64,000 nucleotides of DNA from Octopus vulgaris (Eukaryota), in NCBI GenBank assembly GCA_951406725.2, contig OX597817.1, forward strand, positions 80,600,001 to 80,664,000. Direction: 5' to 3'. Below the pieces are notes generated by a model, which ran no database searches, was not told the DNA's origin, and was given only the letters and a program-made list of their open reading frames with translations. How positions within the stretch are numbered: the first letter of the stretch is position 1; each line of letters begins with the position of its first letter. Shown here piece after piece: positions 14,416-50,532 of the stretch. The position numbers were made by a program, and so were the translations under genes.

Positions 14416-15453
14416 TTTTAATCATAATCACCTTCGTCTTTTTTAGAACATTAGGTTGGCAGCAGCGTTAGAGATTTGGAAAAATGTCTCGCTGTATTTA
14501 TTCCGGCTCTGTACGTTCAAGTGCCACCGAGGTCAAGTTTGCTTTCTGGTGCCAATGAAATAACGCACCAATGAAGTAGTACTAAGGTCCTTATAATCGA
14601 CTAACCCCACTGCACCCAAATTTAAGGTTTTGTATTTATGTTAAGAGCAATTAATATGTCATCTTTATGTAGACGTATGTCTTGGATTTCCTAGAGTGGA
14701 TTAAGTGAGTAAATGTGAATCTATGTTTTGTAGAATGTCTGTATTGATCGCGTGCGCATGTTTGTATGTGAGAGAGAAAGAGAGACTGAGCAAGTCTTAT
14801 GTGTCAGGAAGGATCGTTTGATGTATGCTTTTATTTATTTTCATGGATATTCAGTTTCTTTTTATCTTTTCCAGTTTTACTTCTGTTTGTCTTGATACAT
14901 TGTATGAATGGATGTCTTTGAAAGTTTCTATTGATTTTACTTCGTTTTTGTTTTACTTTCGTCTATTTTTTTCTCAGACAGATATCTCTTTTGAAGAGTT
15001 TTAATCTCTAACTTTCCGTTCTAAACAACAGATCATCAATACACTGTATATATTACCACTAACATTTCCCAAACCAAATCGTTACCACAGGGTTGAAGTA
15101 ATAACTATTTCTCCGTCCAGTTCAACTCTCTTTGTACCAATAGCATTGATGTTGGTAAAACCAAAATTGCCGCCGTCGATATACCAGCAGCACCACTGGT
15201 TCAAAGACACAAATATGTCACTATGCGTCCAGCAGTATCTTGCCTGCGTACCCTTGTTTTTCCTTAGTTTTTATCAAAACACACTTGACTGTACCAATAT
15301 AATATATATCTATGTACCAATATAATATATATCTATGAAGGAAAGTGATTGATTTATGATTGCCTTTTATGTATTGTGGTCATTTCTCGTGGTCATTTCA
15401 TTTCCATACAACACACACACATATGTATATATGTATGTATATATGTATATATG

Positions 15454-15512
<59 letters not shown>

Positions 15513-15675
15513 GTTATCGCCATACTAATATGGCATTCTTATAAAAATAAGAAAAAAGCTGTCCGCTTATTAGCTCCATGAGGCCATCGCCTTAAGTTAG
15601 CTATTTGATACACAAACTGTATCCATATAACCTTCGAACAAGGGAGGTCAGTCGCTCCACACTACTTGACCGGCA

Positions 15676-15717
15676 GCTACAGACGCGTTTCGGGGTATTG
15701 CCCCTTTTCAATGCAGC
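15676..15717 (-). ncRNA. Minimal type-I hammerhead ribozyme, U3-A8 core variant (inverted copy)
   Basis: Minus strand: GCTGCA-TTGAAAA-GGGG(CAATA)CCCC-GAAAC-GC-GTC-TGTAGC. Confidence 0.75.
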
Positions 15718-16195
15718 GTAGCCAGCCAGTAGGTGTCGCTTCCGACAATCTCTGTTCGATGGTTTTATTTACCTAGTTTCGGTGGAATACATCCACTTGT
15801 TTTCAATAATAGAAATATTAAAATAACTAAGTCTCTCTAAAAGAGAACAGCAATACCCCGAAACGCGTCTGTAGCTGCCGGTCAAGTAGTGTGGAGCGAC
15901 GGACCTCCCTTGTTCGAAGGTTATATGGATACAGTTTGTGTATCAAATAGCTAACTTAAGGCGATGGCCTCATGGAGCTAATAAGCGGACAGCTTTTTTC
16001 TTATTTTTATAAGAATGCCATATTAGTATGGCGATAACTATTATTTTCCGGGAACGCTGCCGCTGTTCTCTTTTAGAGAGACTTAGTTATTTTAATATTT
16101 CTATTATTGAAAACAAGTGGATGTATTCCACCGAAACTAGGTAAATAAAACCATCGAACAGAGATTGTCGGAAGCGACACCTACTGGCTGGCTAC

Positions 16196-16237
16196 GCTGC
16201 ATTGAAAAGGGGCAATACCCCGAAACGCGTCTGTAGC
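16196..16237 (+). ncRNA. Minimal type-I hammerhead ribozyme, U3-A8 core variant
   Basis: Stem I GCTGCA/TGTAGC, core TTGAAAA (16202-16208), stem II GGGG/CCCC, GAAA, palindromic stem III ACGCGT, GUC triplet (predicted cut after 16231). Confidence 0.75.
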
Positions 16238-16463
16238 TGCCGGTCAAGTAGTGTGGAGCGACTGACCTCCCTTGTTCGAAGGTTATATGGATACAGTTTG
16301 TGTATCAAATAGCTAACTTAAGGCGATGGCCTCATGGAGCTAATAAGCGGACAGCTTTTTTCTTATTTTTATAAGAATGCCATATTAGTATGGCGATAAC
16401 TATTATTTTCCGGGAACGCTGCCGTTGTTCTCTTTTAGAGAGACTTAGTTATTTTAATATTTC

Positions 16464-16525
<62 letters not shown>

Positions 16526-16832
16526 CAACTAAAATTCAATATCTTCAACAAAGTGTTACTCAAGGCTTCGCATCCACAAAGCAAATACTTGTCCACAGCT
16601 CGTCGGACTCTATATAAATACAAAATTCAAAATAGGTATAGCGCAGACGTGAGAAAACTCAGAACTTGAGGAATACTTCCTAACAAAGAAACGTTAATGA
16701 AGACGGATTATCTCCCCTAAATCAGAGACGAAGAAAAAACCTTAATAACCCGAAGAAGCCTAACTACCAAACGAGGAAATCCAATTTTCCAATAACTATA
16801 TATAAAAAAATTTATATATACATATATGACGC

Positions 16833-17028
16833 CATGATAGATCGTTAGCCACTGCACACATTTTTTTCTCTCCATGTTTCTCTCCTTGGTTTTTTCTGTG
16901 TTCCTTTCTGTAGAAGAGCGTAGGCTCGAAACGTAAAAGACTTTTTCTATTCCTAAGCGTTATACTAATACATCTGTTTCTTTTGTACACCACCTGTCTT
17001 CGTCTTTTGTTTTTTTCGTAAACTCTCC

Positions 17029-17031
<3 letters not shown>
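16833..17031 (+). mobile_element. ~200-bp dispersed HHR-like element (other copies at 25274-25412 and 50314-50497)
   Basis: Shared start CATGATAGATCG.TAGC and end CTTCGTCTTTTG..GTAAA.T.TC. Motif CTTT-CTGTAGA-A-GAGC(GTAG)GCTC-GAAAC-GTA-AAAG at 16904-16939. (TA)n flanks. Confidence 0.65.
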
Positions 17032-17102
<71 letters not shown>

Positions 17103-36051: not shown

Positions 36052-38510
36052 CTCATTTTCCACGGCAAATGATTCGGAGAGCCTACCACCAAAGTTAACT
36101 CTAGCTTTCATATCTTGATGCAAAGCCCTGATCATGTTTACAAATTTTTCTGGGCAACCTCTTTTCCTTAGATTTAGCTATAGAGCATTTTGATTAACAG
36201 TATCGAATGCTATGCTCAAATCAACAAAGCAATGGTATAGAGCAAGATTCTGTTCAATGCATTTTTCTTGCAATTGTCTGACAGTAAAGATACAATCAGC
36301 TGTACCCCTGGAGGAACGAAAACCTCACTGACACTCAGACACTATATTTGGAACTATAAAGGTATTTAAACGTTCTAACAAAATGCGGGCAAGTACCTTT
36401 CCAACCACAGACAAAAGCGAAATCCTTCGAAAATGCAACACGGATCCTTTGGCCCCGATTTATACAAGGAAACTAAAATGGCATCAATCCAGTCTTGGGG
36501 CACTTTCTCAGTTTTCCGACAGTGACAAATTAATATATTTAAGAGTTCAAACATTTTGTCACCACCATATTTCAAGACAGATTCCATCAGATCCTGGAGA
36601 CTTATTGTTATTCAGCTTATTCACAGCTAAATAAATGTCATTTAGAGTTGGTTCAAATACCATCTATTCTATAACTGGAAGGTGTTCGATTTTTTTTTCT
36701 ATCGTCCTTATGTCAGCGGATGATGGTCCATTCAAAAGTGCAGAAAAATGTTCTACCCAGCGTTTATGAATAGGAGTGGTGTCAGTCAGAAGCAAACATC
36801 TATTTGCTGTTCTCACTGGAGCTACTGAAGAAGATTTTGGGCCATATACCTCGTTAACATGAGAGTACAAACCCTTGGCATCATTTGTATCAGCTGCTTC
36901 TTTAGCCCCTTTTGCTCTATCATTCCACCATTCTTGCTTAATTTTTCTTAGAGCAGTCTGCACTTTCCTTTTCAGCTTTCTGTAAGCTTCGTTTGAGTTG
37001 GAGTTCAAGGACTGAGAAAGAAGAGTTTTGTTTTTCTAAAAGTAGATCATGAATTTCTGCTGATCTATCTGAGAACCAGTCACTGGGCTCACATGATTTA
37101 AATCCACTGAGGAACGTGTTGCCTGAAATACTTTTGTTTTGAGATCTTCCCATAGATTGTTTGGGTCAAGATTGATACTTTCTGTAGCATCGTGGAAGTT
37201 CTGTAGCATCGTTTGCAAGTTGCTTGATAATTTAAAATTTGCAACATTTAACGTTTTGGGTACCTTAAGACCAGGCTGTCGATTTTTAGGCATTGTCGAA
37301 AAATCTATATTTCCACGCAATAGATGATGGTCAGTCCAGCTCTCTGTCCCTCTCATGACCCGAACGTTAGAAACGTCTTTCATACCACGTTTTCTGATCG
37401 GAATATAGTCTATGAGATGCCAGTGCTTAGATCTTGGGTGCATCCAGGGGGTTTTATATTTACTTTACTGCTTAATCAGAGTGTTGGTGACAACCGGATT
37501 ATTCTCAGTACAAAACGTCAAAAGAGCTACTCCATTTTTACATTTTTCAATCCTATGTCCACCTAAAACATGCCATGAAACATAGTCCTTTCCAATTCTT
37601 GCATTGAAATCTCCCAATATGATCAGCTTGTCAGAAATTGGTACTTTCCTCAAAAGTTGTGCTAGATCATCATAGAAATATCCTACAGTTTCATCAGAAT
37701 GGAACATTTTTGGAGCATGACTACTGACAGCGGTAAGAAACCTACCTTTTGTCAGTTTAATACGGCGTGACATGATCCGTTCAGATATACCACTTGGAAA
37801 CTCTGCAATGGAGAATACTAATCTATTCTTGAGAGCACACCCGAAACCAGATTCTCCACACTGACCCTTAGGTAGGCCTCCCCAAAATATAGTATATCCA
37901 TAAGTAGGTTCATTTACCTGACCCTCACCAGAGAGACAAGTTTCAGAGACTGCAACTATATCAAGGGAATATTTCTTAAACTCACATGCAATAAGTGCAG
38001 TACGCCTTTCTGGCCTCTTGTTGAAATTATCATCAAGAAGTGTGCGCACATTCCAACAACCAAAATTCAAAGGATGTTTATTTTTACTTTTTCTTGAAGA
38101 TTGACCACAGAATGACGACCGGGCCCAGCCTGTGATACACTGGGACACCTGCCGAGCCAGACGTGTTTCCCTGACGTTCCCAAGCCTTTTTTGCCATTTA
38201 CTGAGTCTGTTTGAAACATTTTACAGTAAGTTGAAAGTGCATTTTTAGGTTTCTGCCAACCAACCAATTCAATGATTTTAGTAAGATTTGGTGTACAGAA
38301 AGTACCTGTGCAGATAAATAATTTTCCGTGGGTGTAGCTTGCACTGCACTACCGCTACCTATTGGCCCAAGAAGACTTTCGCCTGTGTGACATAAAAGTT
38401 CACAAAATCACGAAGATCCAAGGCCTCAGGTTTTATTTCGGAGATTTCCCTCTCCTAGGTAGATTACTAACCAAAGTAAAAGAGCTTCTACCTGCCCATG
38501 GTAAACTATC
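36052..38510 (-). mobile_element. RTE-clade LINE, 5'-intact and 3'-truncated, decayed (APE endonuclease plus N-terminal RT)
   Basis: ORF 37465-38148 has CWNVRTLLD..RPERRTALIA..VSET..LGDFNARIG; then HPRSKHWHLIDY..TDH, VPQDWIDAILVSLYK, GFRSSRGTADCIF..FVDLSIAFD. RTE-like 5' UTR motif TACCTAGGAGAGGGAAATCTC. Multiple frameshifts and stops. Confidence 0.93.
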
Positions 38511-50316: not shown

Positions 50317-50496
50317 GATAGATCGTTAGCTCCTACACGCATTTTTTTCTCTCCTGTGTATCTTTCTGTCGAGGAGCGTAGGCTCGAAACGTAAAAGACT
50401 TTTTTCTATTTCTTTTCCTGAGCGCTATGCTAATACATTTGTTTGTTTGTACTCCACCTGCCTTCGTCTTTTGTTTATTTTCGTAAACTTTCCCGT

Positions 50497-50532
<36 letters not shown>

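Follow-up and report, generated by a model that had tools for sequence, protein, structure and literature searches.

A two-armed insertion of a 362-bp hammerhead retrozyme in Octopus vulgaris, probably written by a Neptune-type PLE

What process could have written one inverted copy and 1.71 direct copies of a non-coding 362-bp unit between two (TA)n tracts, and which part may the hammerhead ribozyme of the unit have played in it? This question is raised by positions 15507-16469 of a stretch of Octopus vulgaris DNA that was analysed over its whole length of 64,000 nucleotides (hereafter the window). With good confidence we regard the array as a young insertion of a non-coding 362-bp non-LTR retrozyme, the arms of which were likely written in trans by the reverse transcriptase (RT) and GIY-YIG nuclease of a Neptune-type Penelope-like element (PLE).

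Architecture of the locus and its ribozyme

The features of the locus are collected in Table 1. Unit positions are counted from window 16232, the first base after the predicted cut; genome-wide counts are pattern matches in the 2.8-Gb assembly, and L-numbers denote fetched loci.

Table 1. Features of the two-armed insertion, in window coordinates
Feature	Position	Strand	Basis or remarks
Left (TA)n-type microsatellite, target site	15421..15509	.	sequence
Inverted arm, 0.95 unit	15507..15849	-	runs from the junction (unit 195, 5') to the short site (unit 175, 3'), into (TA)n
Complete U3-A8 type I hammerhead of the inverted arm	15676..15717	-	mirror of 16196-16237; predicted cut between 15682 and 15681
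Direct arm, 1.71 units	15850..16469	+	runs from unit 343 (5') to the tailed site (unit 238, 3'), into (TA)n
Hammerhead, 3' half only	15850..15875	+	GUC ending at 15869; 5' core strand gone through 5' truncation
Cut-to-cut monomer, 362 nt	15870..16231	+	42% GC, without coding capacity; predicted to fold as a long rod that closes a branched domain
Complete type I hammerhead	16196..16237	+	sequence, covariation; predicted cut after 16231
Short-end site CTATTAT, unit 169-175	16400..16406	+	inferred reverse-transcription start 1; second occurrence at 16038-16044
63-nt tail between both end sites	16407..16469	+	on one arm only
Tailed-end site CTATTAT, unit 232-238	16463..16469	+	inferred reverse-transcription start 2
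Right (TA)n microsatellite, target site	16467..16523	.	sequence

The arrangement of inverted and direct copies described in an earlier note on this DNA was reproduced in its coordinates, its spacing and its two differences. The segment 15507-15851 (345 nt) is 100% complementary to 16062-16406, the direct copies 15850-16107 and 16212-16469 are spaced by 362, and where these copies overlap they differ at exactly two positions (15901 G/16263 T and 16063 C/16425 T). Because the final two bases of the inverted arm overlap the direct arm, the junction was placed at 15849/15850. The arms meet 5' to 5', both 3' ends face outward into (TA)n, and the claimed (TA)n borders are present on both sides. The proposed lack of coding capacity was also confirmed, the longest stop-free frame in a trimer of the unit being 55 codons, and the RT plus GIY-YIG frame that marks an autonomous PLE is absent from it. 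Elsewhere in the window, 16830-17038 and 50344-50503 are short 3' fragments related to the Neptune family Nep-A (78% and 90%), the first of which contains a minimal hammerhead-like motif 360 bp from the retrozyme array. A 251-codon stop-free frame at 37468-38220 on the minus strand is presumably LINE apurinic endonuclease-like.

The direct arm holds one complete hammerhead motif, and the UUGAAAA core expected for it was found at 16202-16208, with U3 at 16202 and A8 at 16207. A 6-bp stem I (16196-16201/16232-16237) and a stem II of 4 bp with a 5-nt loop (16209-16221) are joined by a GAAA-CGCG-UC segment, with a palindromic stem III at 16225-16230 and C17 at 16231. The two GUC sites end at 15869 and 16231 and are indeed 362 nt apart; the 15869 site is without the 5' half of the core, in agreement with its supposed need for the core of the downstream copy. 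As for the suggested release of a monomer, the double-hammerhead geometry is coherent for this first site, but release from the locus itself is doubtful since its single intact sense ribozyme is predicted to be fully paired with the inverted arm in a through-transcript. On the same prediction the locus is likelier a product than a donor and probably a poor donor, and a monomer from it would need a sense-only transcript.

The hammerhead match is not a matter of chance, because the core pattern, with any base allowed at positions 3, 7 and 8, has 787 exact matches in the genome and its reversed control has 0, and because folding of the monomer gives z = -6.45, with 0 of 100 shuffles as stable. 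The proposal of a young, multi-locus retrozyme-like family is also borne out. The size of this family is estimated at ~1,000 loci, since the 3' motif has 2,320 genome matches and the first 100 of these group into 44 clusters. Among the 141 matches listed as best candidates, 46 reach the top score and are full units identical to this unit. The stem III pattern ACAUGU has 812 genome matches (control 13), and 22 of the 30 loci fetched with it belong to an older sister family, which is 77-88% identical to the unit, is likewise U3-A8 and has the same two ends. The palindromic stem III pointed out earlier is preserved in this sister family by a double change (ACGCGU/ACAUGU). No C3-G8 version of the family was seen among 20 C3-G8 matches with the same stem III, none of which carries the family's stem II; one copy of the family is C3-A8 (L184).

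In 19 aligned variants of both families U3, U4, G5, A6, A8, A9, GAAA, U16.1 and C17 are invariant and N7 varies. The type I structure pairs 95% of cells over these variants, against 31-48% in slid controls, and double changes are present at 4 pairs, including the first base pair of stem II and the middle of the palindromic stem III; this covariation largely reflects a single contrast between the two lineages. Across the full length of the unit, each of two sister monomers has 5 double changes beside 11-12 broken pairs, and substitutions affect 12-13% of paired against 21-24% of unpaired sites. Rfam hammerhead models gave no hit on this copy. On a sister copy HH9 aligned at all 77 positions (20 bits against a cut-off of 52), with canonical helix lengths and similar loop bases. 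U3-A8 is the family consensus; the sister family retains it, with compensating changes in the helices, and it sits within a canonical type I hammerhead fold. The earlier note had listed another consensus than TTGAAAA among the sequence-level results that could refute it; UUGAAAA is present in every one of the first 100 listed of the 787 matches, and none of those results occurred. An internal Pol III promoter in the unit was not established by eye.

In two sister-family loci (L182:828-4918 and L181:1666-5822) a 1.6-kb segment interrupts the units near unit 304, accompanied by a short duplication. The segment contains AATAAA and a 376-450-codon frame with a CCHC-like knuckle; this frame gives no Pfam hit, and we take it to be LINE ORF1-like. 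The two loci are 95% alike, L182 ends at the tailed site in (TA)n, and together they represent a cargo-carrying retrozyme.

In raw sequence data, 20 of 24 listed entries have 94-100% of the words of the unit (12 studies, 10 organism labels); 7 entries are possibly the source and none is recorded as RNA, which bears neither way on expression. Contigs were obtained from four runs guessed to be RNA, and three of these contain pieces spanning the cut site. From one run came just one contig, of 392 nt (362 + 30), closed to a loop in the assembly graph; a circle and tandem DNA at low coverage would account for it equally well.

Insertion ends and shared variants

The most informative feature of the locus, which is absent from the earlier note, is its PLE signature of two fixed 3' ends, one per arm, running into (TA)n. 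Among 99 insertions examined 72 are two-armed, of which 9 have a non-standard end and 63 have both ends classifiable, and 61 of these 63 combine one short end (near unit 175) with one tailed end (near 238). By sample the combination is found in 17/19 (hand count), 27/27, 6/6 and 11/11 cases, and for the 27/27 sample, which was chosen solely by the 3' motif, the binomial p is 7e-9. In the unbiased sample 32 of 43 loci are two-armed. The two exceptions to the end rule, L005 and L013, are both at rearranged loci. L013 is a compound locus. L005:402-3362, with two tailed ends, lies at the centre of an inverted duplication in which more than 1 kb of flanking DNA is repeated (98% alike); this may be a rearrangement that the insertion itself brought about. 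TATTAT is present at two places only within the unit, 170-175 and 233-238, which are 63 nt apart. TA-rich DNA follows 103 of the 120 standard ends, and neither type of arm is the longer one (23 vs 21).

The inner ends of the arms were found to be variable. Junctions have 1-5 nt of overlap in 27 of 44 cases; unrelated DNA is caught between the arms at L157:1788-1923 (136 bp) and L158:1402-1651 (250 bp). A cut site is crossed by 35 of 69 arms, and two or more by 15 of 69. The cut site shows no accumulation of arm 5' ends (6 vs 4.8 expected at unit 1-30), and hence there is no genomic footprint of cleavage. These ends are enriched at unit 31-66 (20 vs 7.0 expected). As unit 1-62 forms one strand of the predicted rod, this enrichment can be read as stalling of the RT on entering the rod; it may, on the other hand, mark a transcription start there.

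Allele comparison at 13 polymorphic sites in 97 insertions, two of these sites lying at the short end and possibly reflecting edge effects, showed that copies within an insertion are nearly uniform. Copy pairs differ in 34 of 2,795 cases (1%) within an insertion, including 12 of 1,076 on opposite arms, and in 13,825 of 47,443 cases (29%) between insertions. At sites covered at least twice, rare alleles are limited to one copy in 143 cases, shared by some copies in 8 and by every copy of an insertion in 18; 6 of these 18 span both arms, and 4 of the 6 are absent from the other sampled insertions. Since the copies of an insertion share one variant even across opposite arms, the simplest reading of these sequences would be a single RNA variant as the template of both arms and of all units, and a circle would explain this. 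Donor arrays that were already homogeneous, or gene conversion after insertion, are possible sources of the same homogeneity.

Candidate helpers and the mode of insertion

Frames near the sampled loci revealed several RT plus GIY-YIG families with a CxxC linker, which the accessible text of Craig et al. 2021 (PMC8557442) assigns to Neptune; Pfam recognized RVT_1 and weak GIY-YIG only. Group 1 of these (Nep-A and Nep-A2) is very young, with long frames, a single 3' end and almost no inverted arms. All 150 scored Nep-A hits are identical over 110 aa with frames up to ~1,200 codons, the Nep-A2 frames have 1,008 codons, and both, being the youngest PLEs found, target (TA)n. No close inverted pair of group 1 was present among the first 100 of 1,932 matches listed, 1 of 30 group 1 loci has an inverted piece (35 nt), and the ribozyme cores are C3-G8. 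Two very young Neptune families at L236-L255 and L377-L385 have 4.47-kb and 6.2-kb periods with frames of ~1,000 codons, and the minimal hammerhead of Nep-A has U at position 6. The unit was seen fused directly to Neptune endonuclease-coding DNA at L256:2232-4316 (Nep-A, 99% to young Nep-A) and L307:1420-3201 (Nep-A2), and template switches are a possible origin of these fusions.

Group 2 of the Neptune families has two ends 35-46 nt apart, and its two-armed insertions in (TA)n are short plus tailed in 9/9 resolvable cases (L322, L337, L339, L446, L447, L449, L451, L452 and L453), a count that leaves out five further pairs which the 135 nt inspected do not resolve. In several families of group 2 the 3' UTR contains U3-A8 cores. 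Further U3-A8 cores with ACCGGU as stem III have 11,503 genome matches (control 60), and the 50 loci fetched (L416-L465) include at least 5 families of (TA)n-targeting Neptune-type elements, some of them coding. The U3-A8 pair, which had been treated as surprising, loses this character with so many more cores in the same genome and with the natural cases given in the available text of PMC3088659 and PMC4209133. In L447 the RT frame spans 736 codons, the nuclease is frameshifted and the two arms are 98.6% alike. Some of the 3' ends of Nep-C agree to 99-100%, and Nep-B copies to ~94%. The tailed terminus of Nep-B matches that of the unit at 12 of 13 terminal bases, and over the final 110 nt 19 of 300 shuffles score as well. 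Between the unit and the Neptune, Poseidon-like and Naiad copies fetched, no alignable DNA was found beyond the core heptamer and these 13 terminal bases.

An intact and equally young member of group 2 was not found with 50 of the 11,503 U3-A8 loci fetched, the longest frames seen being broken, and a tree of 9 proteins gave the two-ended group only as an unsupported fork (83/87). For these reasons the candidate helper stays at the level of the group. Other PLEs were rejected as helpers. An old family of Poseidon-like elements, with 150 of 7,838 candidates scored and stops in many of them, has inverted arms, yet its flanks are of AAT type and it has no homology to the unit. Naiad_Ovul (58 motif matches, 30 fetched) has best pairs that are mostly 68-92% alike and likewise no homology.

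The 3' UTRs of Nep-B and Nep-B2 (L316-L345, L366-L376) contain a hammerhead-like motif with complementary stem I, a stem II of 2-3 bp and a palindromic stem III, in which A3 and U8 are present in 19 of 21 matches, the search filter having had A3 fixed. By its sequence this A3-U8 is a putative third natural form of the 3-8 pair in a genome that also has C-G and U-A. Nothing on A3-U8 was found in a literature search, which had subscription papers and most supplements outside its range.

The following course of insertion is proposed. The Neptune protein would cut both strands of a (TA)n tract, and each DNA 3' end could then anneal through 2-4 nt to one of the two UAUUAU sites, priming cDNA synthesis at unit 238 in one case and at unit 175 in the other, on the same RNA variant. 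Synthesis would end at variable positions, mostly where the RT enters the predicted rod (unit 31-66), and the cDNAs would be joined 5' to 5' via a few bases of overlap. As regards the template, we lean slightly towards a hammerhead-cut monomer which was circularised and copied for more than one round, giving the tandem units. The scheme in its most complete form is put forward tentatively: a Neptune protein pair may copy a single 362-nt circle from two UA-rich sites into both ends of a (TA)n break, rolling past the re-ligated hammerhead site and so producing the tail, the inverted arm and the tandems, and the U3-A8 ribozyme may have been taken from a Neptune group that toggles its 3-8 pair between U-A and A-U. 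If the ribozyme was taken from this group, the family would be a ready 362-nt substrate for reconstituting two-ended PLE integration.

The circle has a competitor in an uncut linear multimer from a homogeneous donor array, which would be copied by the same helper with the same two-site priming, the hammerhead being slow, protein-dependent or unused. This template, to which we give a minor share of our belief, is consistent with the lack of a pile-up of arm 5' ends at the cut site and with a stem III of just 2 bp in a monomer. As far as the available texts tell, hammerhead mutants of the anole PLE had no effect on insertion with uncut RNA as the main substrate (PMC11167929), and 8 of 9 Xenopus retrozyme dimers remained uncleaved in vitro (bioRxiv 10.64898/2026.07.22.740005), which points the same way. 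However, 5' truncation should shorten linear arrays in each generation, yet arms of 5-7.5 units exist; alleles unique to one insertion repeat in every unit of long arms, and the core, helices and palindrome have been kept across 17-20% divergence. The helper itself may be questioned too. A role of the very young, single-ended Nep-A or Nep-A2, with the two-ended pattern arising from the retrozyme RNA alone, is improbable in our judgement. These are the youngest PLEs found, with long frames and the (TA)n target, and the fusions at L256 and L307 join the unit to their endonuclease DNA. That both fusions with coding PLEs involve the single-ended Neptune group counts against a two-ended helper. But the insertions of Nep-A and Nep-A2 themselves have a single 3' end without inverted arms, their ribozymes are C3-G8, and two fusions in ~100 loci may be template switches or deletions at shared (TA)n targets.

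Two further explanations dispense with a retrozyme. The repeat could be a terminal repeat (pLTR) that became detached from an undetected coding PLE and is observed in 5'-truncated copies; its anatomy is the same as that of PLE insertions, and Xenopus retrozymes are homologous to pLTRs according to the accessible portion of bioRxiv 10.64898/2026.07.22.740005. We consider this very improbable, as the arms run head-to-tail into the same unit up to 7.5 times, 0 of 99 insertions continue into an ORF of their own at a fixed point, and helix lengths and loops fit the full canonical HH9 model and not the minimal PLE motif. Least credible of all is a DNA-level satellite or fold-back/MITE-like repeat with a chance likeness to a hammerhead, a notion to which the near-perfect inverted repeats and the absence of an Rfam hit would lend themselves. 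The short arrays are dispersed, their 3' ends being fixed and their 5' ends random. Their two termini are not the same, as those of terminal inverted repeats would be, and within the core only N7 varies while the helices covary; all this speaks against such a repeat.

Comparison with known systems

Metazoan non-LTR retrozymes are described in the available text of Cervera and de la Pena 2020 (PMC7229834) as units of 150-450 bp (350-390 in mussel) with GC below 50% and one type I hammerhead. The octopus unit resembles them as a non-coding tandem unit of 362 bp with 42% GC, one type I hammerhead and a self-paired monomer. It differs in having U3-A8 in place of the consensus C3-G8 core and in being known from DNA alone, and the same text gave no description of short two-armed (TA)n insertions with two fixed ends. 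By every testable feature except the C3-G8 consensus the sequence is that of a metazoan non-LTR retrozyme. Plant LTR retrozymes, with a type III hammerhead in LTRs and PBS/PPT, are unlike the octopus unit, which is type I and tandem. Li, Clavereau and Pollet 2026 (bioRxiv 10.64898/2026.07.22.740005) have proposed non-LTR retrozymes to be non-autonomous PLE derivatives; in the accessible part of their paper the link is made in Xenopus through co-occurrence and pLTR homology, with no mollusc among the groups listed as sampled. Whereas they rely on such homology, the octopus unit has no alignable pLTR homology and is linked to PLEs through its insertion ends, its target and its ribozyme core.

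The inverted 5' copy, the one-sided tail and the (TA)n bias are given as PLE hallmarks in the text of PMC8557442. Like the Neptune clade and non-autonomous PLEs such as MRC1 described there, the octopus family has partial tandems, an inverted 5'-truncated copy, a tail at one end and a microsatellite target; unlike those PLEs it has a tail of 63 nt against 30-40 and no ORF. Relative to the same text, the rule of one short and one tailed end is here quantified. A literature search on one-sided tails with inverted copies gave nothing within its range, subscription papers and most supplements being outside it. As far as the available texts go, the origin of tandem-plus-inverted PLE insertions with a one-sided tail was posed as a question in PMC8557442 and partly answered in vitro in PMC11167929. 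The latter (Frangieh et al. 2024) describes for the Anolis Poseidon PLE two internal RT starts that define the tail, and a purified protein that cleaves and extends both strands. In the octopus unit, too, two putative start sites downstream of a hammerhead define the tail, and cutting and extension of both strands are likewise proposed. Those of Poseidon are, by the same account, non-homologous to the cut DNA, whereas the octopus sites are UA-rich and can pair with a (TA)n primer.

Natural U3-A8 hammerheads were reported by Perreault et al. 2011 (PMC3088659), and ~1,300 U3-A8 motifs in Schistosoma Cercyon PLEs by Cervera and de la Pena 2014 (PMC4209133), so far as their accessible texts extend. 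The octopus ribozyme shares with these cases the compensated 3-8 pair, the association with PLEs and the palindromic stem III; it has U3-A8 in the canonical-length type I fold of a tandem retrozyme, in contrast to the minimal pLTR motif of those texts.

The family thus offers a short RNA with two defined start sites together with candidate helpers in the same genome, and therefore asymmetric two-ended priming and the use of a circle are directly testable. The retrozyme class, its proposed PLE dependence and the U3-A8 swap have already been described; our study adds to them the near-strict end rule (61/63), the evidence for a single variant per insertion and the tie to a Neptune group that shares both the core and the ends.
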